Shown here piece after piece: positions 6,176 through 62,933 of a stretch of DNA of 64,000 nt. Position 1 is the first letter of the stretch; every line of letters starts with the position of its first letter. A program made the position numbers and the translations under genes. The notes beneath the pieces were generated by a model. That model was not told the origin of the DNA and made no database searches. It worked only from the letters and a program-made list of their open reading frames with translations. Source of the stretch: Escherichia phage 4E8; sequence record OQ689734.1. One strand, written 5' to 3'.

Positions 6176-6184
6176 GGATACTGA

Positions 6185-6421
6185 ATGAATACAAGACAGC
6201 AATTCAATAAAGAGCACGCCGCCGCTTTGGCGGCTCTCAATCACAACGGCATTCTTGACGCAGCATTAGAGGCATTAAAAGAAACCCTCATGAGAGATAT
6301 TGTATTAACCGAGGCTCATGAGAATAAGAAACGCGAAGAGTGTTATCAAAAGTATAAAATGGTTGGTAGCTTAAAAGAGGTCATAAAAGCTGCTATCAAT
6401 AATGCAGGAGATATTTCCTAA
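6185..6421 (+). CDS. hypothetical small protein
   Basis: 78 aa ORF between portal and scaffold, SD aagga. Confidence 0.4.
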   Translation: MNTRQQFNKEHAAALAALNHNGILDAALEALKETLMRDIVLTEAHENKKREECYQKYKMVGSLKEVIKAAINNAGDIS

Positions 6422-7503: not shown

Positions 7504-7543
7504 TCGACAAATTTATTTTTAATAGTATAGGAGCTAATATAAC

Positions 7544-9156: not shown

Positions 9157-9224
9157 TTTTAAGACCTATACAAGCTAGTGTGTAATGTATATTCTTTGTC
9201 TACATACAACTAGGAGGACAATCT

Positions 9225-12761: not shown

Positions 12762-12770
12762 ATTAACAAT

Positions 12771-12790
12771 GCTCCCTTCGGGGAGCTTTA
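12771..12790 (+). terminator. terminator-like hairpin (gctccc TTCG gggagc + TTT)
   Basis: GC stem with UUCG loop after the stop. Confidence 0.4.
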
Positions 12791-12801
12791 AGGAGATTTA
12801 A

Positions 12802-14988
12802 ATGTCTAGAGAATTAATGCCCAAATCTGGGATAATGATGCCTCATGTTGTTATTAACCGAGATGCTGCAGTAGTGGGTGTATCTACTGTAGATGGGGCC
12901 GCTGGTGCTATCAACTTAACAGAAAAATACCTTCAGAAGTCTGACGCTGAAGCAACCTATCAAACGAAAGCAGAAGGGGCTACTAAGCAATATGTAACCG
13001 ACGCTATCAACCCCATTATGACAAATGCTCTTTTTAAAGATGACCCCTTTGTTAATAATGACACACCTATTCGCTCTGGCGGTGGTAATGGTGTTGAATC
13101 GGTAGATATGATTAAAGTCACCCCTGAGAACACCATCAAACTAGGGAGCTATGCTTCTTCTGTTCAGGGGGTTGAGATTCATTCTGCTGGTCGTCTTCAG
13201 GTTGTTGATCAGAACGATTCTGGAGTCGAAACTAAATATCCGGTATACTCCAAAAGATATCGCCCAGAAGTTGAGGATTTACCTTTCGCTTCAATTGGCT
13301 CCTATGTTAAAGACTCCAAAGGACGCACAATTGGTGTAACTCGTACTGGTATCAACTCTGATATCAAACAGTTTACGCAGAAGGTAACTTTCCAGCAACC
13401 TGTTACTATTCCTGATGCTGTAGGTGATTATGATGCAGTTACACTAAGACAGCTTCGTAACAGTGGTGGAGGTTCTGGTGGTCCTACCATGAGCGGTATC
13501 TCCAACTTTGGTATTGGTGATTTCCATCTTCGTGATAGTCGTGCTTTTATCCCAGCTTTTGAAGTGTTATCTGACGGTCAGCTTCTAAATCGTGCAGACT
13601 ATCCGGACCTGTGGGCTTATGCTCAACTGCTATCCCCAATAACTGATGAGGATTGGCGCTCTTCTATGTATAATAGAGGTAAATATTCCACTGGTGATGG
13701 TTCTACTACTTTCCGCGTTCCTGACAGGAATGGTATCCAAAGGAGTGGTGTTAATGGTTTTGTTGGGGAAGACTCTCTGGGAGCGCTGTATGGTCGAGGT
13801 GATGGTGGAGCTTCGGCTGCGAACGGTCTGGTATTTGATTCAGCTGCACCAAACATCTACGGCAACATTGGCGGCGTGGTAGCCTATGGGCAGACTGGTG
13901 CTATCGTCAGGGGGCAGGAAGAAATGGCTTTGGCACCACAACCCACAACAGGCAATGGTGTTTTAAGAGTAAGTTTGGATGCGTCAAAAGTAAGCCCAAT
14001 TTATGGTCGGTCAAACAGTGAAATCATGGGTCGTAACTTTGTTGGTGTTTGGACTATTCGCGCTCATGGTGGTTTTACTGCTGCTAATACTTCTTGGTCT
14101 GTTATTGATAGTGACTCGACAGAGCCTGCATCCGGAACAGTTGTCAGGGGCGGTAGTGTCAAATCTGAATACAAGATTGGTACAAGCCCAAAATATCAAG
14201 CATATCTTCAGGCATATGGGAAAATTGGTGGGTTAGCAATTGACCGAGGTGCAGTTCTATCAAACGGGGTACAGGAGTGGTTCTTTAATCAAGATGGGAC
14301 TTTGTATTTCCCAGACGCAGAGACGCAAATTGGTACATTAAGGTCTGATGGCGCGTTACATATTAGCGCATACGTCAGGCCAAAGGATATCGTTGTAAAT
14401 CCATTAAACTCTGTTGGGGTTGCAGCTTCAGAAAGAAACGCCATCAGAATGATCAACTACGCAAATGTACCAGAAGGGGGTTATATTAACTCAGTTGGTG
14501 GCGACTGGTACGACGGAACGTGGACCCTCGGTGGGGTTAGGAGTGGTTCAACCTTATTGGACCGTGCACAGCTTAACGTCTATGATGGGCTTAGTGGCAG
14601 TGCCTCGTATTTATTCGGTTCTGACGGCATAGCAAGGTGTCAGGAATGGCGAAGCACATCTGACGAACGGATTAAAAGCAATATTGAGCGTATCAGTGAT
14701 CCACTCTCCAAGATGAAAAACATCAAGGGGGTTACGTGGGTTCTGGAAACCAACGGCTCGGTAGGGTACGGATTCATCGCACAGGACGTAGAGAAGGATT
14801 TTCCTGAAGCTGTATCAGAAATAAAGGCTTCACCAGTCACTCTGCGAGACGGGTCTGTGTTGGACAATGTAAAGTCAGTTAACACCTCGGGAGTTGCTGC
14901 TGCGTTGCACCATGAAGCTATTCTTGAACTTATGAAGCAGGTTGAAGATCTTAAGAAAGAGGTGTCAGAGCTTAAGTCTAGTAAGTAA
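12802..14988 (+). CDS. tail fibre/tailspike with C-terminal intramolecular chaperone (peptidase S74-like) domain
   Basis: 728 aa; C-terminus SDERIKSNIERI...NIKGVTW...GFIAQDVEKDFPEAV matches the auto-cleaving chaperone domain signature (Ser-Lys dyad SDxRxK, GFIAQ). Confidence 0.65.
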   Translation: MSRELMPKSGIMMPHVVINRDAAVVGVSTVDGAAGAINLTEKYLQKSDAEATYQTKAEGATKQYVTDAINPIMTNALFKDDPFVNNDTPIRSGGGNGVESVDMIKVTPENTIKLGSYASSVQGVEIHSAGRLQVVDQNDSGVETKYPVYSKRYRPEVEDLPFASIGSYVKDSKGRTIGVTRTGINSDIKQFTQKVTFQQPVTIPDAVGDYDAVTLRQLRNSGGGSGGPTMSGISNFGIGDFHLRDSRAFIPAFEVLSDGQLLNRADYPDLWAYAQLLSPITDEDWRSSMYNRGKYSTGDGSTTFRVPDRNGIQRSGVNGFVGEDSLGALYGRGDGGASAANGLVFDSAAPNIYGNIGGVVAYGQTGAIVRGQEEMALAPQPTTGNGVLRVSLDASKVSPIYGRSNSEIMGRNFVGVWTIRAHGGFTAANTSWSVIDSDSTEPASGTVVRGGSVKSEYKIGTSPKYQAYLQAYGKIGGLAIDRGAVLSNGVQEWFFNQDGTLYFPDAETQIGTLRSDGALHISAYVRPKDIVVNPLNSVGVAASERNAIRMINYANVPEGGYINSVGGDWYDGTWTLGGVRSGSTLLDRAQLNVYDGLSGSASYLFGSDGIARCQEWRSTSDERIKSNIERISDPLSKMKNIKGVTWVLETNGSVGYGFIAQDVEKDFPEAVSEIKASPVTLRDGSVLDNVKSVNTSGVAAALHHEAILELMKQVEDLKKEVSELKSSK

Positions 14989-31553: not shown

Positions 31554-31731
31554 AACCAACATCCATATCAGCATCTTCCCAAATACGTTTGTTAATACGA
31601 TGTGATTCTTTTTCAGCACGAGGGATACGTCCAGTACGACGATCAAATGCTTGATGTTTAATCTTCTGGTCTTTGCGAGACTCACGATTAGAGGAATTTT
31701 CATCATACGAACGATAATCAAACTTACCCAT
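31540..31731 (-). CDS. small basic hypothetical protein
   Basis: 63 aa charged ORF with protein-like composition. Confidence 0.3.
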   Translation of the reverse strand: MGKFDYRSYDENSSNRESRKDQKIKHQAFDRRTGRIPRAEKESHRINKRIWEDADMDVGYGEG

Positions 31732-32261
31732 TATTCAGTTCCTTCTGTTTTTAAGTAATCACGATCCATATAGTAGGTTTTAACGGAATCTTGAGATGGT
31801 GTTGGGTCAAAAACTACCAACATACTCCCTTTTGTGTTTCCGTTAACAGGGACTCTAGTATCAGCTCTTACAAAACTAATACGTCCTCCTGTTATAAACA
31901 TTATACTATTAGCATTTATCCTACACTTATCAAACCATCGAACTGAAGTATCCGCTGGAATAAGTAGAACTGTTCCAACATTGTGGTCCTGTTGATTTCT
32001 AATTGCCAAGTCAACCCACGGTCCAATATCTGAATATGGTGGATTACACCAAACATAACTACCTCTAAACACTTCAAAGTCATAAGTCAGAGCATTATCT
32101 TCCTCTGATATGAAAGTGCTAACTAGGTGATTGTCTTGACTTGCTGCAATATCACATACGAAGTGTTTATTCTTATTAACATAATTAAACAACCACTGAG
32201 GTGTTTGCCACAAATCTCTTATATCTACCGGAGTGTGTGAGCTTCTATAATCTGTTACCAT
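31731..32261 (-). CDS. DNA N6-adenine methyltransferase (phage Dam-like)
   Basis: 176 aa; WCNPPYS catalytic motif (NPPY) typical of N6-adenine methyltransferases. Confidence 0.65.
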   Translation of the reverse strand: MVTDYRSSHTPVDIRDLWQTPQWLFNYVNKNKHFVCDIAASQDNHLVSTFISEEDNALTYDFEVFRGSYVWCNPPYSDIGPWVDLAIRNQQDHNVGTVLLIPADTSVRWFDKCRINANSIMFITGGRISFVRADTRVPVNGNTKGSMLVVFDPTPSQDSVKTYYMDRDYLKTEGTE

Positions 32262-43615: not shown

Positions 43616-43936
43616 TCAGATTGATTTGTCCTTATGTAAACGGTATACTTCAGTAGCCATACAAGCTATACGCTCGTCATGTGGGAGATGCATACCAGTA
43701 GAGCCGTTCCATCCTTCGAACTCTGAATCAAAGAATCCAATAGGCTCGGGATACATCTCTTGCAAGGTGGTTAAGTCATCAGCCACTTGTTGCCACTTAT
43801 CGTCAGACCAGATTGGGTCATCCAACCAATAATACAAATAGGAGTGGATAAGCATCTGTGTTCTATGTCGTTTAATCACTTCAGCAGGACTAATCTCGTT
43901 TCCGTTACCAGTCCTAAATGTATTATCATTGATCAT
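43616..43936 (-). CDS. small protein resembling the N-terminal domain Ia of NAD-dependent DNA ligase
   Basis: 106 aa; IHSYLYYWLDDPIWSDDKWQQVADDLTTLQEMYPE parallels the LigA Ia signature (YxYYxxDxPxxSDxxYDxLxxxLxxLExxxPE). Confidence 0.4.
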   Translation of the reverse strand: MINDNTFRTGNGNEISPAEVIKRHRTQMLIHSYLYYWLDDPIWSDDKWQQVADDLTTLQEMYPEPIGFFDSEFEGWNGSTGMHLPHDERIACMATEVYRLHKDKSI

Positions 43937-48366: not shown

Positions 48367-48900
48367 TTAGACACCCTTAGAAGCAACTACACCCTCGCTA
48401 CCATTATAGCGACCCTTAACTGCATAGGAATGTTCACCGGCATGTGAATGCTCAAACATTACCATCTGACCGACACGCATACCAGCACGAACACGTAAGC
48501 TGTGGTGCTTGGTTACGTTGTGGAATTCGAACGTCAGCTTGCTATTATTAAACCCAGCGTCTGCCCACCCGGCGTGAAGGTGGTTCAAGCCACAACGAGC
48601 CATTGAGGAGCGGAGTACAAACAGACTTGAGAGGTTATCTGGAAGGTTAAATTCTTCCATTGAGTGAGCTAAGAAGAACTGTCCCGGAGTGATGACAATA
48701 CCATCTTCAGGGATTTTCACCTCTTTCCACTTGAGGTTTTCTTTAGCATCAATATCAACAATGCCGTCAGCCTGTTCTTCAACAAGGATAGTATCACCAA
48801 TACGGATATCCACACTAGCAGCGTTAACATATTTATGCTCCGCATCTAAAAAGCCATTATCAATAACGCTGTGTAATTCTTGAGAACCTAAAAGACTCAT
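48367..48900 (-). CDS. dCTP deaminase family (Dcd/dUTPase-fold) protein
   Basis: 177 aa; AASVDIRIG, LRSSMARCGL, HAGWADAG and GRYNGSEGVVASKG parallel conserved Dcd segments. Confidence 0.65.
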   Translation of the reverse strand: MSLLGSQELHSVIDNGFLDAEHKYVNAASVDIRIGDTILVEEQADGIVDIDAKENLKWKEVKIPEDGIVITPGQFFLAHSMEEFNLPDNLSSLFVLRSSMARCGLNHLHAGWADAGFNNSKLTFEFHNVTKHHSLRVRAGMRVGQMVMFEHSHAGEHSYAVKGRYNGSEGVVASKGV

Positions 48901-50315
48901 GAGTTTCTGTTTCCTTGTACAGATGATGCCAAATTGTTAATCATGTTACGAGCTGTTTCACGAGACAGTGTAACACCTGCTAAGTTACTATCAAGTTCAC
49001 CAACCATTTCACGAGCAGCAGATCGTAGTTCTGCACCAAGTGCAGTATTAGAGTGAGCCAAACCATTACGACGACTATAAGGGCGAGGGGCTTCGTTAGC
49101 GTCATTAGCTAAAGATGCAAAGCCAGTACGAGCAGCTTCACGAGCCGCTATCGCTGCTACTTGATCTTCCATATGGGTTGGCACATCACCAACTTCTACA
49201 CGTTCTATATCACTAGCACGTAGACCCTGAACAACAGAGCTTACTGTTTCCCATGAACGACGAGAACGCTGTAAATCTCCCATTGACGGAGAAGAAGCAG
49301 GACGAATAGTTACCCCACCTGTGTCATGAGTTACATGCCATGTATGGTTGTGGGTGTCCGTCCCAGAAGATCGTGCACTACCAAAACTGCCAGTGAAAGT
49401 GTCACGTCTGTTAGTTCCTGGAGTCCAAGGTTGTGTGATTGCTTCAGCACCGATAGTAACTAACCCACTAGACCATTCTGTCTGTAGGTTAACTTCTTCA
49501 TCCAGATAAATATGACCTACTTCCGGAGGAATATTTAATGCAACCTCCATCATCTTCAAGGTATAATGACGACGTTGATTCTGATACAAGTTTACACCAG
49601 CCATAGGTCCAACTAGATCACTGATAAGATGAACTTCTGGCTCACCAAAAGCACCCATCGCAAGGTGCATGTATTCAGTAGAACTGCTATAAACTGCAAC
49701 AGTTGCTTCAGGCCACTTTTTGTGAACATATTTCATTTCACGACTTGATACTACAGGAATGTCACGAGTATACGACATTGCAAACAAACCTTCATCTGAC
49801 ACATACATGTCATCAAGAGTCATGAAACCCTGACAGATCATAGGGAAGCGACCACATAGAGTGTTCATATCCAGAGGAAGGTTAATCATCATCTGAATCT
49901 TCACTTCATCAATCTCAATTTCCAGAATCTCTTGGAAAATGAAAAGTGCATCAGCGTAAGTTGCTCCGGTGATAGGCTGAGCTAAGCGAGATGTAACTTG
50001 AAGCCCCTTACTCTCTGTCCAAGACAAGAAGTTGTCAAGGAACAGTGCAGCATTACTTACGTTAGCAGGGCTGTTTTCCTGACGAGTGTTCCAACGTAAT
50101 CCTCCTTGAACTAGGAAGATATCAACATCATTCGGAGTTCGGTTTTGGAAGAACGTATCACGAATAGCACCACCTGCAATAACAGGGTAGATACCATCAG
50201 GAACTACGTTGTCTCTGATCAGATTGCGAATCAGATCAAGCCCTACGCTGAGGGCTTCTCCTTCTTGAAGGTTTAATTCAGACAATGGAATCTTAATCAT
50301 TTCTACATTTTCCAA
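48897..50315 (-). CDS. nucleotidyltransferase (Pol-beta superfamily) domain protein with long C-terminal extension
   Basis: 472 aa; [23 protein letters not shown] fits hG[GS]x(9-13)DxD of minimal nucleotidyltransferases (CCA-adding/poly(A) polymerase head); C-terminal ~250 aa unassigned. Confidence 0.45.
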
Positions 50316-52670: not shown

Positions 52671-52877
52671 TTAGTAAAACGATCGTATTTCTTCCCACAC
52701 ATCATCTTGCAAGTTTCTAAAACCCTGCAAGGTTTGCTTTGTTCTGTGAATAAATTCTTCAGAGTGCTTGTCGGGTGTGAGCATACTGACAAACTTTTCA
52801 TAGCGATTAATCTTCCACCGCATCTTCAAGTAGTCAGATTCCAGCTTTCTTAACTTCTGCCTGTCAGTTACTGTCAT
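52671..52877 (-). CDS. hypothetical small protein
   Basis: internal Met of ORF 52671..52973 chosen to limit overlap with the upstream gene. Confidence 0.3.
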   Translation of the reverse strand: MTVTDRQKLRKLESDYLKMRWKINRYEKFVSMLTPDKHSEEFIHRTKQTLQGFRNLQDDVWEEIRSFY

Positions 52878-53295
52878 CCTTCTCACCTGCCAGATATGCT
52901 GTCCAGTCACCAGATTCAACCAGAACATCTTGTTCTTCGTCGATGTGATAAATCCACGCTTCCACAGTTTCACCGCTGTCCAATAATACTGGAATCAGTG
53001 TACGCTTGTAAAAGGTGTATGGGTTATCATTACCACGATGACCTTCCAGACCGTCATACGGACCTTCCAGACCAGCTTGGGTTGTTTCAAAGACTTCTAC
53101 ACGAACAGGCTTACCATTGCTGTCATGCTCCAAAGATACACTTGGGAAGTATGCTGTGCAATACTGATACAGGTTACAGTTGTTTACTGTCCACCCTTCA
53201 CCAATAGACACACCACCTGCACGAGCATTGATAGCGTGGTTGTGTTGACCTTTACGAAGAGAACCATACGTTGCAACTAATACTTTATCAGACAT
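52864..53295 (-). CDS. gamma-glutamyl cyclotransferase-like (GGCT/AIG2 fold) protein
   Basis: 143 aa; N-terminal VATYGSLRKG (YGSL motif) and VRVEVFETT...LEGPYDGLEG resembling the GGCT catalytic-Glu region. Confidence 0.6.
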   Translation of the reverse strand: MSDKVLVATYGSLRKGQHNHAINARAGGVSIGEGWTVNNCNLYQYCTAYFPSVSLEHDSNGKPVRVEVFETTQAGLEGPYDGLEGHRGNDNPYTFYKRTLIPVLLDSGETVEAWIYHIDEEQDVLVESGDWTAYLAGEKDDSN

Positions 53296-53299
53296 TACA

Positions 53300-53497
53300 T
53301 TACCTTTTGTTTAAAATTTCTTTTGTACAAGAAGTCCCGTTACACACGAGAACTGTTTGAGTTATAGAATCGACAACTGTTACATGGCTGCCGCATTGAG
53401 TTATGATTTGACCTCTCCCTGAATCTTTAGAGATGCATTCATCAGCGGCGATCGCTGACACACTGAATAAGGAGAGGAAAAATAGAATCTTTTTCAT
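53300..53497 (-). CDS. small secreted Cys-rich protein
   Basis: 65 aa; signal peptide MKKILFFLSLFSVSAIAA, four Cys in the mature part. Confidence 0.4.
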   Translation of the reverse strand: MKKILFFLSLFSVSAIAADECISKDSGRGQIITQCGSHVTVVDSITQTVLVCNGTSCTKEILNKR

Positions 53498-53503
53498 GGC
53501 TGC

Positions 53504-53920
53504 TTACCAATCATGTTGGAAACCAGAATATCCAGAGAAGATGATTGATCGGATTGGCTTTTCAGGGAATTCTTCAAAACATCCCTTAATGGCTTTCTTG
53601 GTTTCATCAGAAATTGACTCTTTTTCACCAAACCAGTATTCTTCAAAAATATCAGAGAAGATATAAGTTCGGTATCTTTCCAAGTCATAAAAACCTTCCA
53701 CTGCACTTGTAACAGCTCTACTAATTACACTTGAAGCTACAGGAAATAAGTCACCGTGTTCCAGAAACAAGCACCAACGATCAAAGAGAGGAATCTCTTC
53801 ATCTTTCAGAAGACTTTCTAACTCTTCCTTTGCCTCTTTCTTGTGCTTATCAAAGAGGTTTTTGGAATACTCTACATCTAAGATACGACTTTTAAACATA
53901 TCCAGTTTATTATTAACCAT
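53504..53920 (-). CDS. hypothetical protein
   Basis: 138 aa ORF inside the accessory cluster. Confidence 0.4.
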   Translation of the reverse strand: MVNNKLDMFKSRILDVEYSKNLFDKHKKEAKEELESLLKDEEIPLFDRWCLFLEHGDLFPVASSVISRAVTSAVEGFYDLERYRTYIFSDIFEEYWFGEKESISDETKKAIKGCFEEFPEKPIRSIIFSGYSGFQHDW

Positions 53921-53977
53921 TTTACAACCTCTAGTTAAATTCGAACTAGCCTCCTCTTTCGAAGAGGCTAAAGCAAA

Positions 53978-54163
53978 TTATTCTACTTCGAAGTGTTTGA
54001 TCACACCAGTCAGTACATCAGATTGGAACGTACCTACTAGCTCTGTGCCTCGGAAAAAGTTAACACTTGTTCCAAGTGATTCAAAGCGATCTGCTTGAAT
54101 GTCCAGAGATTGAATATTTCCTTCTGCTGACATTGTACGAAACATGATTGTGTATTTATTCAC
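53978..54163 (-). CDS. hypothetical small protein
   Basis: 61 aa ORF. Confidence 0.3.
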   Translation of the reverse strand: MNKYTIMFRTMSAEGNIQSLDIQADRFESLGTSVNFFRGTELVGTFQSDVLTGVIKHFEVE

Positions 54164-54402
54164 AGACTTGTTACTCCCTTATCTGCTTGTGCAATTGCGA
54201 TGATACGCTCAGCACATTCCATTGAATATTTATCACCTCGTTTGAGGAAGGTGATGATTGCAGAGAACTGATTACCAATCATTCTCTTATTTGTGATACC
54301 AAACTCTTCACAGAGTTGGTTGATAGCTTTACGAGAGCCTACAATCAGAGGCTCTTTTTCTTCGGTCATTCCACGGCTGATCAAATCTTCGATAGACAAC
54401 AT
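54160..54402 (-). CDS. hypothetical small protein
   Basis: 80 aa ORF, 4-nt overlap with the downstream gene. Confidence 0.3.
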   Translation of the reverse strand: MLSIEDLISRGMTEEKEPLIVGSRKAINQLCEEFGITNKRMIGNQFSAIITFLKRGDKYSMECAERIIAIAQADKGVTSL

Positions 54403-54428
54403 TACAAATTCCTTTTTGTTTAATTTAA

Positions 54429-55664
54429 TTACAGAGTTACTGCTACTTCGCTACCTTCAACACTGACAGACTCTAACTTGCGAGGGTTATGAATCTGGAC
54501 TGGATTGACCGGAACGTTCCAACCACTGCGGTAGAAGTTACGACCATCACAGAACAGGATGACATTGGCAGACATTGCATTCGGTTGCAGGTTGTTGTGG
54601 ACATGACGGATATTTGCAATCCAGTAGCCACGAGACAAAGTGTAGCCAGTAGGTGCATTACGAATAGTTTGAGTATTCATCTGACCTTCCAGTTGCATTT
54701 CTTCAGGAACCACATCAACTGAATCAATCGGCTGTGCTACTTGTCCTTCCAGTGCAAAGTTTTCATCATCAGCACTTTCAATATCATCCACCAACTCACC
54801 GTCTCCATCTTCAATCGGAGTCTGGTAAACCACTTTATACTGAGGAGTATAGAGAGGGTTCTGAGCTTTAACAAACTCAAGAATGTTATGACGGTAGGTA
54901 TCCAGAGTTGTACCAGTCAGGCCCGGTGCTGTATTAACTTCCAGTACCCACGCTTCTTGACCTTTGGTGATAATATCAACTGCACCGAAATCCAGACCCA
55001 TTGATTCAACAGCTTTCACCGCATTGATCAGAGAGGCGTCATTCGGAGCATCTGTGAAGGAGCTTGAGTAAACCCAGCCAGTGTGGTGATTACGAATATC
55101 TTCACGATAGTTAGGGTCTTCTCGATAACCGTTGCGACGAATCTTCTTCTGAACATAGGTGATTACACCTTTGAACACATGGACACGCCACTCACGACGT
55201 GGGCCTTGAATGCCTTTAGTGTACAGTTCAGCTCGACCAAGACCATCACCCGGTTCTACAACAACAATGCCCGAACCAGAGTGACCAGTCAGCTCATGGC
55301 GCTCATACACAATATTACCAGTGTTTGACCACTCTTGAGCAGTCTCTTGAACATCTGTGTATTCCACAGTTTTAACACCTGCTTGGTCCATCACGCTGAA
55401 AGCACGACGTTTGTTCGCTGCCATATGTAAGGCTGCGGTACGGTTAAGGACGGTTGCAGAACCAAAGAATGATTCAGGATAGCGACGGTTCCCGTAGTTA
55501 ACAACCACATCACCTTCACGAGAACGCCAGCGGCTATTCTCTGAAAGAAGACCCATCACGTTAGCATTGATGCGTTCATCACGGATAGTATCACTGATAG
55601 CAGATACTAGAGCGTTAACAGAATCAGACGGGCCATACGGAAGAACACGGATACGAGTAGTCAT
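54429..55664 (-). CDS. ATP-grasp family ligase
   Basis: 411 aa; MGLDFGAVDIITKGQEAWVLEVNTAPGL matches the C-terminal ATP-grasp signature (D....g...vlEvN..Pg) of RimK/glutathione-synthetase-type enzymes. Confidence 0.55.
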   Translation of the reverse strand: MTTRIRVLPYGPSDSVNALVSAISDTIRDERINANVMGLLSENSRWRSREGDVVVNYGNRRYPESFFGSATVLNRTAALHMAANKRRAFSVMDQAGVKTVEYTDVQETAQEWSNTGNIVYERHELTGHSGSGIVVVEPGDGLGRAELYTKGIQGPRREWRVHVFKGVITYVQKKIRRNGYREDPNYREDIRNHHTGWVYSSSFTDAPNDASLINAVKAVESMGLDFGAVDIITKGQEAWVLEVNTAPGLTGTTLDTYRHNILEFVKAQNPLYTPQYKVVYQTPIEDGDGELVDDIESADDENFALEGQVAQPIDSVDVVPEEMQLEGQMNTQTIRNAPTGYTLSRGYWIANIRHVHNNLQPNAMSANVILFCDGRNFYRSGWNVPVNPVQIHNPRKLESVSVEGSEVAVTL

Positions 55665-55666
55665 TT

Positions 55667-55897
55667 TTAGATACCTTTTAGTTTAAGGATTTCGTTACGA
55701 CAGGATTGAATTTTAGCTTCGATTGCCCAATACTCAGCGAACATTTCGTCTTCTTGGGCATCGCTTGGAGAGTCGATTAAGTTAAAAGCAAACGGATACA
55801 GCTTTCGCTGCTCCGTTACCAGTTGTTGAAGTCGGAGTTGTTGATACTCCAGCATTGTCAGGTGAGGCTTAGCTCCCTTGCTTGACATGAGGCTCAA
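55667..55897 (-). CDS. hypothetical small protein
   Basis: 76 aa ORF. Confidence 0.3.
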   Translation of the reverse strand: MSLMSSKGAKPHLTMLEYQQLRLQQLVTEQRKLYPFAFNLIDSPSDAQEDEMFAEYWAIEAKIQSCRNEILKLKGI

Positions 55898-56102
55898 CTT
55901 TAATCCCCTTCATTTTAACATAGTCAGCCAACACGTTATTGATAACGGTTGGAAAAGGGATTTCTACTGGAGAGTCAACCAGCTTCCCAATACCTTCTTG
56001 CATCCACTTCTGGATTGCTCGGAGGTTATCACATCCTGTGCTTGTCATCGGAATACGGCGGGTAGTTACCACGTTATCCAACATCAGTTTACGAACTTCC
56101 AT
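55869..56102 (-). CDS. hypothetical small protein
   Basis: 77 aa ORF. Confidence 0.3.
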   Translation of the reverse strand: MEVRKLMLDNVVTTRRIPMTSTGCDNLRAIQKWMQEGIGKLVDSPVEIPFPTVINNVLADYVKMKGIKVEPHVKQGS

Positions 56103-56113
56103 AACTATACCTC

Positions 56114-58147
56114 TTAGTGTTTACCTTTACAGTAATCTGAATTACAGATCACCCTGTTTTCTTTGTTCAGTGAGCAAGTTTCTGCATCACGCCACGGAAT
56201 TTGTTTATAACAGACTGCACAAAACCCAATTGAAGTCCAGAGGGCTTTTGTAAACTCAGCTGTTCGTTGTCCATCGTAACTGACAACTGTTTTTCGGAGA
56301 GAGGTTGACTTTTCTGGAAATGTCTCCGCTTTCTCAGCGGGTACCTCCTTTGGGGCATTCTTTGGACCATAAACAGAGATGGCATAAGTATCACCACCAC
56401 GTTTTTCCAAATACGAATTAGGAACATCTGCAAGTGTGATGTCCCCTGAACGTTTTGCTGAGCTGACCATTACAATCATACGGCTAAGCATACGTTCATC
56501 AACACGAACAGCTACTTCAGGACGACGTGGGTTGGTTGTGTCTACTGCTTTAGTCCAAATATAACCTTCAGATAGAGTAACATTCTTTACTTTATCTTTG
56601 ATTTCTTTGGAGCAGATATAACAAACGTCTTCACCACGAAGTTTACTCATTTCATTGTCAAACTCGAAATCAGTCTTGACTTCACCACAGATAGCACATA
56701 CACCCAAAGGCACATCTTCTTCCTCTTCAGAGGTTTTAGATAACGCTTCGAAGCATTCTGGATGCCAGTATGCCTGATAAGCAAACACAGCCTTACGAGC
56801 ATCTTTCCAGTCAATGTGCTTATCACAACCACCACAGTCACCATGAGAGTGAGATTCCCAGAACTTACGAGTGACTTCTACACCATTCTTAGTGATGAAG
56901 GAGTCCTCTGCATCAAAAGGGATATCATCATCAAAATCAGCAGTAGTGCTTTGAGGCTCCTTATCTGTAGCATCAACAAACAGCCCTGAAGTTAGTACGA
57001 GGCGAATCATACTGTCCACTTCGGAGATACAAGCAATCGTCCCGCGATATACTACCTTTGGGTTTTCAAGAGCCTTAAGATATTCATCTTTGGCTACGTT
57101 GTGAACATCCCCTTCGACATACTCTTGAGCTTTATCATCGTAGATGTAACCAACCATCTTACCACGATCTGTGTTGTTATAAGCATGGAACTCGTGAGGA
57201 ATAATATCCACACGACCATCACGACGATAAGGAAGACCACGATCGGCAGCCAGTTTGTTCTGGTCTTCAATCGCTTTACGACGACGAATGTCTCCGCTTG
57301 TCACGCCGGGCTTGTCGTCTTTGTTTCCGTAAATGTCGCTTGTGCTGCTGCTTGATTTGTTTGTCTGTTGGTTCTGATAAAGAGAGGAGTTCGAGTAATA
57401 GCCGCCCCAGCGACTCGTTACCGTAAAAACCGGAAGCGTGTGCTCCACCTCTTGAACCAGAGTCATACGACTGTTAGACACATCAAAGATATACTCAGTT
57501 CCCACTTTACATTCGAAGTGGTCATTGATACGGTTCTTATGGGACTTAGAACGCTCTAAAATCCACATAAGCATAGCTTCTTCAGAAGCTCCAAACCAAT
57601 CCAAACCACAGCGGGCTAGGTGGAAAGGACGCTCATCATTACGGATAATGTGAAGTGTGTTGTCTTTAGCATCATGCCAAATCAAAGTGAATGCACCATC
57701 CAGTTTTTGGATAGTCTCTGCTGCTCCAATGGTGTTAATTGAGTGGCAGATGTTTTCACTATCAACTTCGAAACGCTTACTGTCAGGAAGGAGATCTTGA
57801 TCTAACAGGGTTCCATTATGAACCAGAGTAATATCCCCGTAAGTAAATGGGTGAGCATTTCGAGCATTGACAGCCCCACGAGTGGCATGTCGGCTGTGAC
57901 CAACAATCCACGAAGGAGGAACTACGTAGTTCGTAAGCCCTTTGGTAATATTTGTATATTCTGTCTGGAGCATAAAAGCATAAGAAGGAAGAGCTTCTTT
58001 ATAAGAGAAGACTTGCTTTTCACCTTTACGCTGACCAAACACACCAGTTGAGTGCTGTCCACGGAAAACACCAGCATACAGAAGTTGGTTGAAAATGTCC
58101 AAATCTGCTGAGGTCATGTTGCCGCCAGCTAATACGATACCACAAAT
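56114..58147 (-). CDS. class-II (Ntn) glutamine amidotransferase domain protein with Cys-rich C-terminal region; predicted AUU start
   Basis: reading upstream of the annotated ATG gives K-I-C-G-I-V-L-A-G-G-N-M...FRGQHSTGVF, the PurF/GlmS-type N-terminus (CGIVG...RGQDxxG) plus GHSRHATRG...NAHPF; ATT at 58145..58147 lies 8 nt after AGGTGG. Confidence 0.65.
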   Translation of the reverse strand: MCGIVLAGGNMTSADLDIFNQLLYAGVFRGQHSTGVFGQRKGEKQVFSYKEALPSYAFMLQTEYTNITKGLTNYVVPPSWIVGHSRHATRGAVNARNAHPFTYGDITLVHNGTLLDQDLLPDSKRFEVDSENICHSINTIGAAETIQKLDGAFTLIWHDAKDNTLHIIRNDERPFHLARCGLDWFGASEEAMLMWILERSKSHKNRINDHFECKVGTEYIFDVSNSRMTLVQEVEHTLPVFTVTSRWGGYYSNSSLYQNQQTNKSSSSTSDIYGNKDDKPGVTSGDIRRRKAIEDQNKLAADRGLPYRRDGRVDIIPHEFHAYNNTDRGKMVGYIYDDKAQEYVEGDVHNVAKDEYLKALENPKVVYRGTIACISEVDSMIRLVLTSGLFVDATDKEPQSTTADFDDDIPFDAEDSFITKNGVEVTRKFWESHSHGDCGGCDKHIDWKDARKAVFAYQAYWHPECFEALSKTSEEEEDVPLGVCAICGEVKTDFEFDNEMSKLRGEDVCYICSKEIKDKVKNVTLSEGYIWTKAVDTTNPRRPEVAVRVDERMLSRMIVMVSSAKRSGDITLADVPNSYLEKRGGDTYAISVYGPKNAPKEVPAEKAETFPEKSTSLRKTVVSYDGQRTAEFTKALWTSIGFCAVCYKQIPWRDAETCSLNKENRVICNSDYCKGKH

Positions 58148-58224
58148 TTTCTAATCCACCTGAAGGGTAAACCCTTTCATCTAATTAACCTTTAAATGCG
58201 CCCTGTATAAGAGCGCCCGTTGTG

Positions 58225-59325
58225 TTACAGCAGTCGTTCTAATTGCATTTCCAGATGGTCTGGAATATAACCAGTGACGTTATCATCACTGCTACCTGAT
58301 TCACGCATCAATGCAAACATGTGACGAATTTCACGAACCGTTGCGATTCGAGTGCTTTCAATCTGAGGGGTGTAGTAGGTCATGATCTCTTCGTAGACAC
58401 TGTTGGCATTACCGCGCACATATCCCAAGAAACCATAGAAGTCATTCATATCACGTAAGTTGATAAGGACTTCACCATCAGGGCCAGTCTGTTGCACACG
58501 AACACGACCAACCAAAGTTACAGATTGCTCACGACAGAAGAGAATATCACGAGCAAGACGATACCCTTCAGTGAGATCACTGTCTCTTGGAGTATAGTCT
58601 AGGGGTAGATGTTGAATCATAGGAGCGAAGCGCAGCTCATTCAACTTCTCAACATAAGCTTCATTGTCTAAATCTGCATATTCAACAGCCAGTTTCTTGA
58701 GAACCAAGAAGCGGTTGACCAGATTCAGAAGTTGGCTCTTTTTCCACTTCGGCTCTGAGATACGGAACTCAACAGAACCAAATTGAGATAGAGGCAAAAG
58801 ATTAAGGGAGGTATATTTATCCCAGCTATTAACAAGAGAGTGGAAGAAAGCTTCCCCGTCTCGGTTGAACGCTGACGAAGCATTCATAACTTGTGCTTGA
58901 ACGACAGCAAAAGCTGGACAGAAGTTGCTACGATAGCGATGGTATCCAGAACATTTGAACATCATCTTTTCATAGAACGTCCATCCAAGAATAACTTTCT
59001 TAAGGATATTACTATCAGCGTCACGCATATCCATATGAACGTGAGTGGAGCAGCGCCAAGTTCCCTCGGCTCCAGAATCCTGTACTGCTTCACTCAGATT
59101 GTTAATAGCACGAAGTAATTCTTCACCGTTGTAAGGTCGTGCACATACTAATTCACAACCATCACGAAGAGAGCCATCTTCAGTACAAACCCACATATCA
59201 GCGTCAATGTCAGTTGTACCTTCGACTTCTAACTCAATACCAACACCACACTGAAAAGCAATACTTGGATGCGGTTCAGATAAGCGAGGGTTACGGTATC
59301 CAAAAACTTGTGCTACGGTTGTCAT
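58225..59325 (-). CDS. amidoligase-like (glutamine-synthetase-fold carboxylate-amine ligase) protein
   Basis: 366 aa; GIELEVEG, EDGSLRDGCELV and CSTHVHMD resemble conserved E-x-E / DGS / HxH elements of GS-like amidoligases. Confidence 0.45.
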   Translation of the reverse strand: MTTVAQVFGYRNPRLSEPHPSIAFQCGVGIELEVEGTTDIDADMWVCTEDGSLRDGCELVCARPYNGEELLRAINNLSEAVQDSGAEGTWRCSTHVHMDMRDADSNILKKVILGWTFYEKMMFKCSGYHRYRSNFCPAFAVVQAQVMNASSAFNRDGEAFFHSLVNSWDKYTSLNLLPLSQFGSVEFRISEPKWKKSQLLNLVNRFLVLKKLAVEYADLDNEAYVEKLNELRFAPMIQHLPLDYTPRDSDLTEGYRLARDILFCREQSVTLVGRVRVQQTGPDGEVLINLRDMNDFYGFLGYVRGNANSVYEEIMTYYTPQIESTRIATVREIRHMFALMRESGSSDDNVTGYIPDHLEMQLERLL

Positions 59326-59948
59326 AATGATTCCACCAACTCTACATTATATGATGACAGGTCTGAAGAAATATGCTTGAACTTCTCCAGAAGGTTTAAA
59401 GATTGACGACCATTGTCGCCATAACCAGCTTCAAGAAGCACGTTTCCAACGTAAGCCCCTTTGTAATAAACTTTTCCATCGACAGGATTGATATAGATGA
59501 AACGAGTAACCAACCCTTCAAACTCTGGATTAAACAGGTTGTACACCAAATCACCCGGAATCGAACGTCCGAGAGAAGGTGGAGTACCACGAAGTTTATT
59601 CCCCATCAAGCCTTTAGCTCGCTGACGAACAGGGTTGATATGGGTCCAGCTCACCATGTTATTGCCATGCTGAAGGTATCCTACATCTGGAGACTCCAGA
59701 ATGAGGCTGTGATCAAACACTGGGATATTACTAACAATCTGACGTTCAAACTGACCTTCGGAGTTTTTAGTCCAGCGCTCCGCCTCAAACACTAAAGACA
59801 TTTCAGCGTCGTGTGAGTAGTCGTCGATATCAAAGTTACCTTGCTGACGAACATCAAGCACATATAGAGGGAGGTTTTTACCATCAGGTGATCGCTGAGC
59901 AATCCATGTTCCACAATAATAGTGTTGAAAATCTCTTAACAAGCTCAC
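59322..59948 (-). CDS. hypothetical protein
   Basis: 208 aa ORF, 4-nt overlap with the downstream gene. Confidence 0.4.
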   Translation of the reverse strand: MSLLRDFQHYYCGTWIAQRSPDGKNLPLYVLDVRQQGNFDIDDYSHDAEMSLVFEAERWTKNSEGQFERQIVSNIPVFDHSLILESPDVGYLQHGNNMVSWTHINPVRQRAKGLMGNKLRGTPPSLGRSIPGDLVYNLFNPEFEGLVTRFIYINPVDGKVYYKGAYVGNVLLEAGYGDNGRQSLNLLEKFKHISSDLSSYNVELVESL

Positions 59949-59957
59949 AATATCACC

Positions 59958-60764
59958 TTATACAATCTGGAGTTTAGAGGAGAATTTATCCGCTTCTTTA
60001 ACATCGTTACTGTTGATGATGTTGTGAAGCTTTTCAATTGGAAGGCGAGAGTGAAGTGACATCAATACTTCCATATCACAGCCTTGAACAACCTTATCAA
60101 CTTGCTCATAAACAAACTTGCGGGTTGACTTCTCGCCAATCCAGAAGTTAGAAAGAGAACGATATTCAATACCGTAATCTTTGTAGCGAATGGCAGAAGC
60201 CTTTCCGTACAACTCTTTACGACGAGTGTCTTTATCCATGATCACAGCTGGCAAGGACAGGAAGTAATCACACAACACACCCAACATCATTTGAGTCTGA
60301 CGACTAATTTCCAGCGTACCAGTGACGCCAAGGTGAACATGACCGCCAGCAGTACGCAGACCTTTGTCTGTCGCTACTGGTGAAGGGTTCTTTTGTCCAG
60401 TGAAGGCATTGAAATCAGGAGTACAACCAAATACAAAGGCTGACGGATGGAAAGATTCCAGCTCTTCTGAAGTGAACACATGAGAGCTAATCCCAAGTGC
60501 TGCCTCCATGCCACGTTCATTGAGAACTTTGTTAGTCAGATCAATACCGCGCTGAATGTTATCATCAAACGCTTCAAACCCTTTCTGTGGGTTAATATCA
60601 AACTCGGCCAGAACGTTATCTTCTTGAAGACGAACATCAGGAGCCAGATCAATTTTATTATCTTTAGAACAGCCCAGCTTACCAGCCACAGAGGTGATAA
60701 TACCGGAAGCAGTACGAACAAACATTTCAGGGTCAGAGCCAATAAGGAAAGCGCGCTTAGTCAT
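59958..60764 (-). CDS. hypothetical protein, possibly a second amidoligase-like enzyme
   Basis: start set to MTKRAFLIGSDPEMF; contains GSDPEMFV, QEDNVLAEF and AGGHVHLGV (weak E/HxH-type resemblance). Confidence 0.3.
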   Translation of the reverse strand: MTKRAFLIGSDPEMFVRTASGIITSVAGKLGCSKDNKIDLAPDVRLQEDNVLAEFDINPQKGFEAFDDNIQRGIDLTNKVLNERGMEAALGISSHVFTSEELESFHPSAFVFGCTPDFNAFTGQKNPSPVATDKGLRTAGGHVHLGVTGTLEISRQTQMMLGVLCDYFLSLPAVIMDKDTRRKELYGKASAIRYKDYGIEYRSLSNFWIGEKSTRKFVYEQVDKVVQGCDMEVLMSLHSRLPIEKLHNIINSNDVKEADKFSSKLQIV

Positions 60765-61707
60765 TGTAATACTCCACGAGTTCATCAAAAAGGGAAACAA
60801 CACGAGCACCAGCTTCTTCTGGTGTCATTGAGGAAGGTACTGCTTGCATCAGACGTTCGATAAAACTTCGAACAGTAATCCTGTCCATACGCTGATCTAA
60901 TACTTCTCGCTTGTGACCTGCACAAGTTGACCAGAGACGTAACCACTCACTCATACTCTCATAATGGTCAGGGTCTTGGTCACGACGACGTGCCATACGA
61001 CGGAGAACTCCATCATTATGGTTTCGTACATAACCATCTCGGTTGTCATCAACACCGAATACATTCTGAACCCATACGTTTTCAGAAAATTCATCAGTGG
61101 TGCAAATTAATGGCAGAAATGCAATTGCACTCATGTCGCCATCAAAATAAGTCGCTGCTGACTCATCGGTTGAGTCTACGTCATTACTATAACACCAGCG
61201 ACCAAAGAAGTTACGACTTAAACCAGCTAAGCGTAGAGCTAAACCGATTCGTTGTCGCTTAAGCAACTCTTCCTTGTCTTGTACGCCTTCCTGAAGGAAC
61301 TCCATTCCATTAAAATCACCATCCAAATAGCTACGGATGGTCATTAGTCCAGTAAACACCTTGTCTGCTGGATGGTTTCGAAGGTTCACGGCAATGGAGT
61401 TCACCGAAGTGACAGAGAACATATCTTTATAGCAAGACATTGAGTTAAAAATGTCTGTTGCTTCAACTAAAGCTCTTTCGATATCTTTAGCTGGCACGCC
61501 ATAAAAATTGTGAGGCCAGAAGTTAATAACTTCAATTTCTGAAGTTCTATCACGAAGGTTTGTTCGGTTACGACTTTCACCGTTAATGTCTGTAACAGAG
61601 TACATGTGCATACAGTTAAAAGTACCAAAGCAAGCTCTTCCTTTGAACACTGACTCACCGAAATCCTCTGCCGGTGTTACCGGAGCAATCGATGCGGAGA
61701 TTGACAT
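60757..61707 (-). CDS. hypothetical protein
   Basis: 316 aa ORF in the accessory cluster. Confidence 0.4.
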   Translation of the reverse strand: MSISASIAPVTPAEDFGESVFKGRACFGTFNCMHMYSVTDINGESRNRTNLRDRTSEIEVINFWPHNFYGVPAKDIERALVEATDIFNSMSCYKDMFSVTSVNSIAVNLRNHPADKVFTGLMTIRSYLDGDFNGMEFLQEGVQDKEELLKRQRIGLALRLAGLSRNFFGRWCYSNDVDSTDESAATYFDGDMSAIAFLPLICTTDEFSENVWVQNVFGVDDNRDGYVRNHNDGVLRRMARRRDQDPDHYESMSEWLRLWSTCAGHKREVLDQRMDRITVRSFIERLMQAVPSSMTPEEAGARVVSLFDELVEYYND

Positions 61708-61715
61708 ATTCGCCT

Positions 61716-62933
61716 CTATTTATTAAAGAATAATTTTTCCATAATGGTTTCCCACTCTTCTGAGGGGAGAGTTGAGAACCCGTTTCCGTGAAGCCTGTTT
61801 GTCATGCAACTAATAATATTGTACATGTTGTAGCTTCGGGTGGATTCTGTTCCATTGTTCCAATTATAACCGAAAACAATTTTATCAAAGGAGGTTTTAT
61901 CCGTAGTTACTTCTCGGATGAATTCTACTAACAGAGATTTCTCCGTAATAATCGGACGTTCCCCATCTGGCAGATTGCAATACTGAGGAAGAAGAATTGG
62001 CAAGAACATCGAATTATTCACTCGACAATCACGAACACCTTCACTGCGATAGATTAGGCTTGAGAAGTCTTCATCACGCAGGTGTCCTTCACCTTCAGTG
62101 TATTCACACTGTCGCCACTTGGTCTGGCGAGGCTCAATCATTGTACTACCAACGCCTACTGTATACAGAGACGCTTGGAAAATACATGAATCGTAATCAT
62201 TCCCTGTTAAAGCAACTTGCTCGTTGCCGAACACATCCACTGAAGAGTTAATCAGTCGGCTGAATGCAAGAGAGGCTAAAGGGGACCAACCTTTCTTATA
62301 CATCTTGTTCAACATTTCATACACAGCAGATTTTTCATCATCTGTATAGAATGTACGATTCAGCATCAGATAGAACAGAGCGCGATCAGCAGGACAACCA
62401 TCAGTACAAACACCCATGAATCCTACTTCATGCCATACCAGACATGAGTCAGAATCCTTATCCATGAATGCTTCAAAGGCTTCCATTACAGCCCTGTCAG
62501 TAACATCAGGACGGTTGTTTTCTTCTGCCCATGTTTCTACATGAGAAGGAGGACGAGGGTCTCCATTCTCCACCCCTTCGCGGAAATATTGAGTGGTAAT
62601 AGGCTTTTTATCACCATAACGTTTTACACCATAAGCGGGAAGGTGTGTACCAGAGTTCCAGATGTACTTAATTTCGGACATAGGCATCATGTTTTCGAGA
62701 ACGTTCTCTTCAGCAGTGCCTTGACGAACCATCATATTTTCACTCCACACCTTAATGCGGATATTCCAGCCGTAGTTGCTGTCATACGTGTTATAATAAT
62801 CAGGATCACCATCTTCATCTTCATCATAATCACCACCCTGATAGTAACCTGCTTTCAGGAAACCATAACAAGGAGGCCAGACGGTTACAACATCATCTGA
62901 TTCTTTCCAGCTTTGAAGTGTTACAGGGAACAT
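61716..62933 (-). CDS. hypothetical protein
   Basis: 405 aa ORF, first large gene of the accessory cluster. Confidence 0.4.
   Translation of the reverse strand: MFPVTLQSWKESDDVVTVWPPCYGFLKAGYYQGGDYDEDEDGDPDYYNTYDSNYGWNIRIKVWSENMMVRQGTAEENVLENMMPMSEIKYIWNSGTHLPAYGVKRYGDKKPITTQYFREGVENGDPRPPSHVETWAEENNRPDVTDRAVMEAFEAFMDKDSDSCLVWHEVGFMGVCTDGCPADRALFYLMLNRTFYTDDEKSAVYEMLNKMYKKGWSPLASLAFSRLINSSVDVFGNEQVALTGNDYDSCIFQASLYTVGVGSTMIEPRQTKWRQCEYTEGEGHLRDEDFSSLIYRSEGVRDCRVNNSMFLPILLPQYCNLPDGERPIITEKSLLVEFIREVTTDKTSFDKIVFGYNWNNGTESTRSYNMYNIISCMTNRLHGNGFSTLPSEEWETIMEKLFFNK

Follow-up and report, generated by a model that had tools for sequence, protein, structure and literature searches.

A phiEco32-type amidoligase cassette in Escherichia phage 4E8 and a possible gamma-glutamyl handle pathway

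The closest described counterpart of the locus studied here is the phiEco32-type amidoligase cassette, in which neighboring amidoligase, ATP-grasp, and glutamine amidotransferase (GATase) genes were noted computationally in phages, phiEco32 among them (Iyer, Abhiman, Burroughs & Aravind 2009, Mol Biosyst); that paper is cited as proposing cell-wall modification or the synthesis of a secondary metabolite. The cassette has also been called a “peptidoglycan modification cassette” (Hardies 2013; Duhaime 2017) and has been discussed for RIO-1, HP1, LUZ24-like, PA11-like, and OM43 phages. UFV-P2 and other LUZ24-like phages keep its gene order unchanged, and among the early gene products of phage SU10 found by mass spectrometry are the ATP-grasp enzyme, the GATase, and a YtfP-like gamma-glutamylamine cyclotransferase (GGACT). 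Here, we studied a 64,000-nucleotide (nt) stretch of Escherichia phage 4E8 (OQ689734.1), hereafter the window, in which a co-directional run of genes on the minus strand (52864-62933, delimited by profile matches and a program-made list of open reading frames, or ORFs) carries the same families in the same order and in the same place beside the primase/helicase. An original prediction, made from the letters alone, had ascribed to this run a dedicated pathway of amide and gamma-glutamyl bond chemistry, and had mentioned similar neighborhoods in phages and no experimentally defined function for them. Such neighborhoods had indeed been described computationally; the full-text literature we searched contains genome descriptions and the 2009 prediction, and no biochemical or genetic study; and the genes do behave as one module, co-occurring in about 300 phage records with their order kept. 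The finding is a correct re-discovery of a known cassette of which the source phage is a member, and the locus is without structural novelty. What we add is the membership of phrog_4877 and DUF7195 in the conserved set, an ATT start for the amidotransferase, an apparent Peptidase_C26 alternative in Zobellviridae-type phages, and the co-occurrence across those roughly 300 records.

A chemical likeness can also be drawn to the pathways of putrescine (PuuA/PuuD), ergothioneine (EgtA/EgtC), and butirosin (BtrJ/BtrG), in each of which a ligase makes a gamma-glutamyl amide and another enzyme later removes the glutamyl group. The ligases of these pathways have a glutamine synthetase (GS)/GCS fold or an ATP-grasp fold, and the removers are a C26 hydrolase, an N-terminal nucleophile (Ntn) hydrolase resembling class-II GATases, and a GGCT-type cyclotransferase; the phage cassettes hold all three types of remover. 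However, there is no sequence-level orthology, matches being at superfamily level and far below cut-off, and unlike these pathways the phage cassette has three ligases and is without their oxidase, pyridoxal phosphate, methyltransferase, or carrier-protein partners. We propose, at a probability of roughly 0.45, that the cassette is a co-inherited module for successive ATP-dependent carboxylate-amine ligations on an acceptor other than DNA, in which a gamma-glutamyl group would serve as a temporary handle.

Extent and co-inheritance of the cassette

Across its full 10 kb the region is 99.3% identical to that of Escherichia phage IME267, and it is 89-99% identical to those of about 20 other E. 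coli podophages of the Gordonclarkvirinae (phiEco32-like, C3-morphotype), with identity falling to about 74% for Kuravirus phages such as SU10 and KBNP1711. IME267 and SU7, the closest relatives checked, belong to the genus Suseptimavirus, in which we likewise place the source phage. In transcriptional terms, the minus-strand cassette comes just before the replication genes, which it adjoins and which are read in the same direction: downstream of it are encoded the primase/helicase, a split DNA polymerase's exonuclease subunit, a nucleotidyltransferase, and a dCTP deaminase.

We compared the window with the loci of IME267, SU7, and MN03 (Gordonclarkvirinae), A24 (Grimontviridae), Ab22 (Bruynoghevirus, LUZ24-like), Bjorn (Bjornvirus), HP1 and O4 (Zobellviridae, O4 being a Paundecimvirus), and several metagenomic contigs. 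The conserved set that emerges from this comparison consists of the phiEco32-type COOH-NH2 ligase (COOH-NH2_lig), phrog_4877, Amidoligase_2, the class-II GATase (GAT-II), DUF7195, the ATP-grasp enzyme, and GGACT, with phrog_4877 and DUF7195 assigned to it, by sequence and position, as two further members. Most lineages compared keep the order from COOH-NH2_lig to GGACT, with the cassette abutting the primase/helicase, and the four large enzymes stand in identical order in five loci (from Gordonclarkvirinae, Grimontviridae, Bruynoghevirus, and Bjornvirus); in the Zobellviridae the genes are reshuffled yet clustered. The comparison of gene neighborhoods across related phages, which the original prediction had suggested, thus finds the cassette syntenic and mostly conserved in order. 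The window itself holds PF14395 and PF12224, an ATP-grasp enzyme and a class-II GATase (54429-58147), an AIG2/GGCT cyclotransferase, and synteny with both phiEco32-like and LUZ24-like phages.

When 50,697 phage records were searched with tblastn, the four large enzymes matched 317, 309, 287, and 311 records, with near-identical taxon breakdowns (about 120 Pseudomonas and 93 Escherichia, then Vibrio, Aeromonas, Proteus, Salmonella, and Cronobacter). Their co-occurrence is near 1:1 and far above chance, and the near-identical breakdowns point to a module inherited as a unit in about 0.6% of sequenced phages. In some relatives the ligases bear extra large domains, as in an ATP-grasp protein of 769 amino acids (aa; positions 10852-13161 of metagenomic locus L011) and Amidoligase_2 proteins of 506-586 aa (positions 6426-7946 of locus L004 and 5222-6982 of locus L008), and these additions might be a pointer to the acceptor. 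A PADLOC search found no likeness to defense proteins.

Enzymes of the cassette

Pfam and PHROG matches place GGCT-like (YGSL), ATP-grasp, class-II GATase, and amidoligase families on the minus strand where the original prediction had put them, settle at two the GS-fold amidoligase-like proteins that it had counted as “one or two.” The Cys-rich C-terminal extension of the GATase is present as well. Conservation of residues was judged on alignments of relatives, with up to 42 sequences; the residues typical of each family are intact in all five enzymes, and the lack of catalytic residues that the prediction had named as a reason for doubt was not seen.

A pointer to gamma-glutamyl chemistry comes from the enzymes that would remove the group. 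At the downstream end of the cassette sits a GGACT/AIG2-type gamma-glutamyl(amine) cyclotransferase of 143 aa (52864-53295, minus strand; PF06094, 8.9e-16; phrog_2520, 4e-41), in which Y10-G11-S12-L13 (the YGSL motif), D81, L83-E84-G85, Y96, and R98 do not vary among six phage lineages. From what is known of human GGACT/GGCT, we take E84 of the D-x-L-E-G motif to be the catalytic glutamate. GGACT is missing from the whole genome of phage O4, though the cassette is present; just upstream of the cassette (positions 6591-7211 of its locus, L006) lies a gene for Peptidase_C26 (9.7e-17), presumably the family of PuuD and the gamma-glutamyl hydrolases. A gene of this O4 type occurs in 59 phage records, nearly all of them Zobellviridae-type podophages from groups that also match the cassette enzymes, and in Salinivibrio phage CW02 and Vibrio phage Phriendly it directly adjoins the GAT-II gene. 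In O4, Peptidase_C26 looks like a non-orthologous replacement of GGACT. Because the cyclotransferase and the hydrolase have unrelated folds, and their sole common activity is the release of a gamma-glutamyl group from an amine, their relation argues that the pathway has, as intermediate or product, a gamma-glutamyl-amine with a free alpha-amino group.

The two GS-fold ligases are separated solely by the phrog_4877 gene. Amidoligase_2 (366 aa; 58225-59325, minus strand), a carboxylate-amine ligase of the GS/GCS fold, matches PF12224 at 3.1e-8 (34.2 bits, cut-off 22) and phrog_7469 at 4e-142, and in 27 sequences E31/E33/E35, D50-G-S-L-R54, R91, H95/H97, and E186-x-R188 are invariant. The phiEco32-type COOH-NH2 ligase, of the GCS superfamily (268 aa; 59958-60764, minus strand, extended to 60809 in the ORF list), matches PF14395 at 3e-8 (33.7 bits, cut-off 25), a family that Pfam titles “Phage phiEco32-like COOH.NH2 ligase-type 2,” and phrog_3815 at 7.7e-112. 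It probably starts at the ATG at 60764, because the PHROG match opens at residue 16, and the IME267 annotation agrees; D26, E28, H157/H159, R197, and E215-x-R217 are invariant in its alignment. Both enzymes thus retain an acidic first strand and the H-x-H and E-x-R motifs; sequence searches of the PDB found nothing for either.

The third ligase is an ATP-grasp enzyme of 411 aa (54429-55664, minus strand; phrog_2599, 7.7e-171), laid out as a catalytic part (about residues 1-265) followed by a C-terminal extension of about 140 aa. G130/G132 of the Gly loop, E158, R160, D230, and E242-x-N244 of the metal site are invariant. Among characterized proteins it scores best against MptN, RimK, and CofF, which are alpha-L-glutamate ligases and with which it shares the Mg/ATP-binding E-x-N motif and the flexible Gly loop. 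However, these matches, and a further weak one to Ddl, all fall below the curated cut-offs, narrowly so for Pfam RimK (19.6 vs. 21) and by a wide margin for the other glutamate ligase models (TIGR00768, 27.8 vs. 143; MptN, 36.7 vs. 350; RimK equivalog, 22 vs. 331), and the C-terminal extension is an addition of the phage enzyme. By these scores it is a RimK-like ATP-grasp enzyme and not a RimK.

The class-II (Ntn) GATase (PF13522, 1.5e-14; phrog_4736, 2.8e-178) spans 677 codons at 56114-58147 on the minus strand, compared with 56114-58117 in the ORF list. Both the listed ORF and the annotations of IME267 and SU7 give a protein that opens with MTSADL and is without the N-terminal Ntn cysteine; in Kuravirus MN03, the annotated start lies 114 codons further downstream. 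The in-frame DNA upstream of the listed start reads TAG AAA ATT TGT GGT ATC GTA, which contains x-Cys-Gly-Ile-Val, and 90 of the 120 homologues retrieved start with MCGIV. Across 15 loci, the codon preceding the cysteine is ATG (four), TTG (six, which are all six of the Leu cases), ATT (four), or ATC (one, in phage O4), and every one of the 15 has a Shine-Dalgarno (SD)-like purine-rich run 6-9 nt upstream of it. As the codon is always start-capable and always has an SD-like run, the true product should be Met-Cys-Gly..., and the conserved ATT at 58147 is the predicted true start, giving Met-Cys-Gly-Ile-Val. All of the GenBank annotations checked (IME267, SU7, and MN03) start downstream and would lose the catalytic Cys1. 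In the gene calls of some metagenomic homologues, an N-terminal extension, MKGFTLQVDYKI, precedes the cysteine.

The intergenic leader of the GATase gene (58148-58224, minus strand) comprises a stem-loop after the Amidoligase_2 stop, a hairpin (AAGGG-TTTA-CCCTT), and an SD-like GGTGGA at 58160-58155. About 50 nt before the start are identical in Suseptimavirus and in Kuravirus MN03, whose proteins are merely 68% identical. The hairpin in L011 shows a compensatory change of the stem, GGG/CCC to GAG/CTC (AAGAG/CTCTT), and MN03 keeps the structure, not the sequence, of the stem-loop past the Amidoligase_2 stop. The predicted fold of the leader was not better than that of shuffled controls (z = -0.55), and an Rfam search of the cassette returned no family, whether riboswitch or other known RNA. 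The leader may be a translational or transcriptional control point, and we infer that translation of the glutaminase is deliberately kept weak and separate from that of the ligases.

Two other readings of the sequence before the GATase gene were considered and rejected. A conserved upstream MKGFTLQVD could have been a leader peptide, or a PurF-like propeptide joined by readthrough of the TAG, but the codon before the cysteine is start-capable with its own SD-like run; the TAG/TAT falls in the spacer between SD and start, the sequence coding for MKGFTLQVD forms a hairpin with a compensatory change, and the in-frame ATG...TAG mini-ORF is an artifact of the 5' untranslated region. A conserved motif upstream of the gene was also discarded as a promoter for the phage sigma factor, since it occurs just once in the window and the leader is without TAATGTATA, the element published as the promoter consensus of the phiEco32 sigma factor (phi32_gp36). 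That element occurs in five exact copies in the window, at 9183, 26279, 35909, 35980, and 42688. Within the cassette, the sole copy with at most one mismatch (59341-59349) lies inside coding sequence; with the other copies elsewhere, this suggests that the cassette is transcribed from promoters upstream of it.

In 42 GATase sequences, R29, H84, R86, T89, N111-G112, and D129 are invariant, as are the Cys pairs; R86 and D129 presumably correspond to Arg73 and Asp123 of GlmS, which bind the alpha-carboxylate and alpha-amino groups of glutamine. In the AlphaFold model (predicted local distance difference test score, pLDDT, 84.5), residues 1-240 form a glutaminase domain, which a disordered linker joins to a beta-domain (312-391); this beta-domain is the portion of the tail common to LUZ24-like phages, and it is followed by three CxxC...CxxC zinc modules and a further beta-domain. 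Foldseek matched the N-terminal domain only, to GlmS, the asparagine synthetase AsnS, PurF, and EgtC (8e-13 to 1e-9). The phage enzyme is like the class-II GATases GlmS, PurF, and AsnB and the stand-alone Ntn hydrolase EgtC in its N-terminal fold and in the Cys1, Arg, Asn-Gly, and Asp of the glutamine site, and unlike them in its tail of beta-domains and three zinc modules: neither the model nor Foldseek nor sequence searches gave the C-terminal 394 aa any likeness to a known synthase domain, and among 1.84 billion representative proteins the C-terminal region has no relatives beyond this phage family. One of the ligases may act in trans as the ammonia-accepting partner.

A candidate pathway and its alternatives

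Taking together the families, their conserved residues, synteny, co-occurrence, the detection of some of the proteins, and the relation between GGACT and Peptidase_C26, we infer an order of steps and every substrate in it. One of the two GS/GCS-fold ligases, COOH-NH2_lig or Amidoligase_2, would turn a carboxylate into an acyl phosphate and couple it to an amine; with free Glu as the most likely donor, through its gamma-carboxyl, the product would be gamma-Glu-NH-R. The second GS-fold ligase and the RimK-like ATP-grasp enzyme would then form more amide bonds; RimK-family enzymes typically attach L-Glu to a terminal carboxylate. The Ntn amidotransferase, with its glutamine/gamma-glutamyl site intact, would either give ammonia to an acyl phosphate or hydrolyze a gamma-glutamyl amide in the manner of EgtC, and its conserved glutamine-site residues fit a gamma-glutamyl-type ligand, in line with the handle idea. 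GGACT would finally take off the gamma-glutamyl group as 5-oxoproline and free the amine, a step that Peptidase_C26 may perform by hydrolysis in other phages, instead of or alongside GGACT. The acceptor could be a small amine, a peptide-like metabolite, or a peptide, with the chemistry of L-glutamate and L-glutamine central throughout, and phrog_4877, DUF7195, and the beta-barrel/zinc-ribbon tail of the amidotransferase would likely be non-catalytic binding or regulatory parts.

Several points weigh against this scheme. The literature searched contains no experiment on the cassette and no identified substrate. Three ligases and a removal step exceed the needs of a simple protecting-group scheme, and GGACT and Peptidase_C26 are not strictly exclusive, as Rhizobium phages appear in both match lists. 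Further, the tandem SH3/Tudor-like barrels of phrog_4877 and the zinc ribbons and beta-domains of the GATase look, as modeled, more like parts that bind a macromolecule than a small molecule, and RimK, the nearest characterized relative of the ATP-grasp enzyme, modifies a protein. The constant position of the cassette beside replication genes and the resistance of the Gordonclarkvirinae to restriction-modification (RM) systems also make a nucleic-acid target possible.

If the target were a protein, the cassette would place glutamate or short peptide tags on a host or phage protein, by RimK-like C-terminal glutamylation or as a lysine isopeptide tag, so that a host function is taken over or protected, with the glutaminase and GGACT editing or reversing the tags. 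RimK-family protein and cofactor glutamate ligases are the nearest characterized relatives of the ATP-grasp enzyme, GS-fold ligases tag proteins in pupylation (PafA), and the small beta-barrels and zinc ribbons of phrog_4877 and the GATase tail are typical macromolecule-binding modules. The broad resistance of the Gordonclarkvirinae to the defense systems tested in the BASEL study would also fit the inactivation of a host protein. However, no small cassette protein has a conserved C-terminal Glu/Gln (the C termini of DUF7195 and phrog_13464 are variable), and the substrates of GGACT and Peptidase_C26 are free gamma-glutamyl groups and not peptide-embedded ones. We regard protein modification as unlikely. 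Still less probable, in our estimate, is a role at the cell wall, a special case of the handle scheme with a defined acceptor, in which the ligases would build or alter linkages like those of peptidoglycan stem peptides (gamma-glutamyl, amidated carboxylates, or D-Ala-D-Ala-type) on cytoplasmic precursors, GGACT and the amidotransferase would act in turnover, and the altered envelope would exclude superinfecting phages. This is the literature's own description of the cassette, and the ATP-grasp enzyme does have weak matches to D-Ala-D-Ala ligase, although it is nearer the RimK/MptN alpha-L-glutamate ligases than Ddl. Peptidoglycan offers gamma-linked D-Glu and amidated carboxylates, which in other systems are products of ligases coupled to a GATase (MurT/GatD; AsnB/LtsA-type class-II GATases). 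However, the substrate of GGACT has to be an L-gamma-glutamyl group whose alpha-amine is free, whereas the iso-Glu of peptidoglycan is D and N-acylated. No part of the cassette links it to the envelope; it is also without Mur-ligase, transpeptidase, or lipid-II-related domains, its core enzymes have no obvious signal peptide or membrane segment when their sequences are read by eye rather than with a predictor, and it is retained across hosts of differing envelopes, always by the replication module.

Decoration of DNA or of nucleotides with an amino-acid-derived amide group on the base is the least probable of the readings we weighed. It would explain why, in the BASEL study, the Gordonclarkvirinae show striking resistance to RM systems and yet have no known modification pathway. 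The window contains 16 EcoRI, 24 EcoRV, 7 EcoKI, and 107 EcoP1 sites, so that for these four systems site avoidance is rejected as the cause of the resistance; the primase/helicase always adjoins the cassette; and in metagenomic contigs amidoligase and amidotransferase genes sometimes adjoin those for thymidine hypermodification (5-HMUDK, aGPT-Pplase; Lee et al. 2018, 2021). However, DNA of the LUZ24-like phage tf, which has the same cassette, was cut by five restriction enzymes of varied sequence (RsaI, HpaI, EcoRV, SmaI, and HaeIII), ligated, and Sanger-sequenced, which makes bulk DNA hypermodification unlikely. The original prediction had linked the cassette to DNA or nucleotides through a divergent ThyX, a Dcd-family deaminase, and a P-loop kinase, and this link did not hold up: the ThyX is a Thy1 of the canonical type (1.1e-42), the Dcd is a dCTP deaminase of the ordinary kind, and the candidate ORFs for the kinase are PhoH and a weak kinase-like ORF. 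General Pfam scans of about 30 ORFs at 31-63 kb, which included no named 5-HMUDK, aGPT-Pplase, or dUMP hydroxymethylase model, returned ThyX, Dcd, PhoH, thioredoxin, Dam, exonuclease, polymerase, and similar families, with several ORFs matchless, none assigned to any kinase or pyrophosphorylase family, and no match for a 5-HMUDK-type kinase, aGPT-Pplase, TET/JBP, or DpdA-type enzyme, and the cassette proteins have no detected nucleic-acid-enzyme domain. Other candidate causes of the RM resistance are at hand as well, namely the Dam methylase and the nucleotidyltransferase/dCTP deaminase pair, which the BASEL authors regard as a possible source of DNA modification. A broader proposal, that a glutamate-derived covalent modification of some macromolecule by the cassette causes the RM and defense resistance of the Gordonclarkvirinae, we find very doubtful; such a modification could fall on phage DNA, to an extent or at a place missed by common restriction enzymes, or on a host defense or replication protein, and the SH3/Tudor-like phrog_4877 and the zinc-ribbon tail of the amidotransferase would be targeting modules.

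Word usage in the window can be described separately from these readings. EcoRI and EcoRV sites are at expected levels, and GC-rich 6-bp palindromes are strongly depleted, with eight at 0 copies against 6-11 expected from base composition, a depletion that derives partly from rare shorter words, Markov expectations being lower. CGCG, GCGC, and GGCC are 3-5 fold under-represented, the 128 GATC sites are about half the base-composition expectation, and there are just 3 Dcm sites (CCWGG). The Dam-family N6-adenine DNA methyltransferase is encoded at 31731-32261 (minus strand; PF05869, 1.2e-49). The 472-aa “nucleotidyltransferase” beside the dCTP deaminase (48897-50315, minus strand; phrog_12715, no Pfam match) has a C-terminal half that looks low-complexity or disordered.

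Remaining genes of the region and significance of the cassette

The phrog_4877 protein (208 aa; 59322-59948, minus strand) is conserved and non-enzymatic-looking, with tandem small beta-barrels of SH3/Tudor-like type. A search for bacterial homologues of this protein and of Amidoligase_2 with informative neighbors returned matches that were essentially all on phage-sized contigs. DUF7195 (77 aa; 55869-56102, minus strand; PF23825, 3.3e-19), just downstream of the GATase gene, has homologues at the same position in MN03, A24, L010, L011, Ab22, and Bjorn, and its strand-helix-helix pattern can be read as ribbon-helix-helix-like. Next to it is a 76-aa protein (phrog_13464; 55667-55897, minus strand) that is conserved in position in MN03, A24, L010, and L011. 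Proteins of 80 aa (phrog_8339; 54160-54402, minus strand) and 61 aa (phrog_8591; 53978-54163, minus strand) are each conserved in SU7, IME267, and MN03. Two genes are accessory: a DUF7020 protein (138 aa; 53504-53920, minus strand; PF22885, 1e-19), which is absent from SU7 and again stands beside GGACT in L011, and a small ORF of 65 aa (53300-53497, minus strand). The latter is the small secreted Cys-rich protein of the original prediction, and in the ORF list it does have a signal-peptide-like N terminus and 4 Cys; however, it is not part of the conserved cassette, being without a Pfam or PHROG match, unannotated in IME267, and in a region missing from SU7.

At the upstream end lie a 316-aa protein (phrog_13102; 60757-61707, minus strand) and a 405-aa protein (phrog_13063; 61716-62933, minus strand). 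The first is a member of a highly diverged family of paralogues that stand in two to three tandem copies upstream of COOH-NH2_lig in related cassettes, and the second is tied weakly to this upstream family via metagenomic relatives. We rejected the idea that the two are recent paralogues, since they show no direct similarity, just a chain of weak links through those relatives. Elsewhere in the window is a stand-alone N-terminal NAD+-binding Ia domain of an NAD-dependent DNA ligase (106 aa; 43616-43936, minus strand; PF22745, 8e-34), without the ligase catalytic domain.

This module takes up 6-10 kb in about 0.6% of sequenced phage genomes, a range that extends from phages of marine Pseudoalteromonas to candidates for therapy against E. 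coli and Pseudomonas. The genomes that bear it are small (45-90 kb), and its conserved residues are intact across very deep divergence. The mis-annotation of the amidotransferase in GenBank matters in practice to anyone expressing the cassette enzymes, since the database ORFs are without the catalytic Cys where the real start would be ATT or TTG, and clones built from them would be inactive. With the BASEL phages Bas86-94, which have the cassette and can be plated on engineered K-12 strains of E. coli, the question of what the module makes is now directly tractable.

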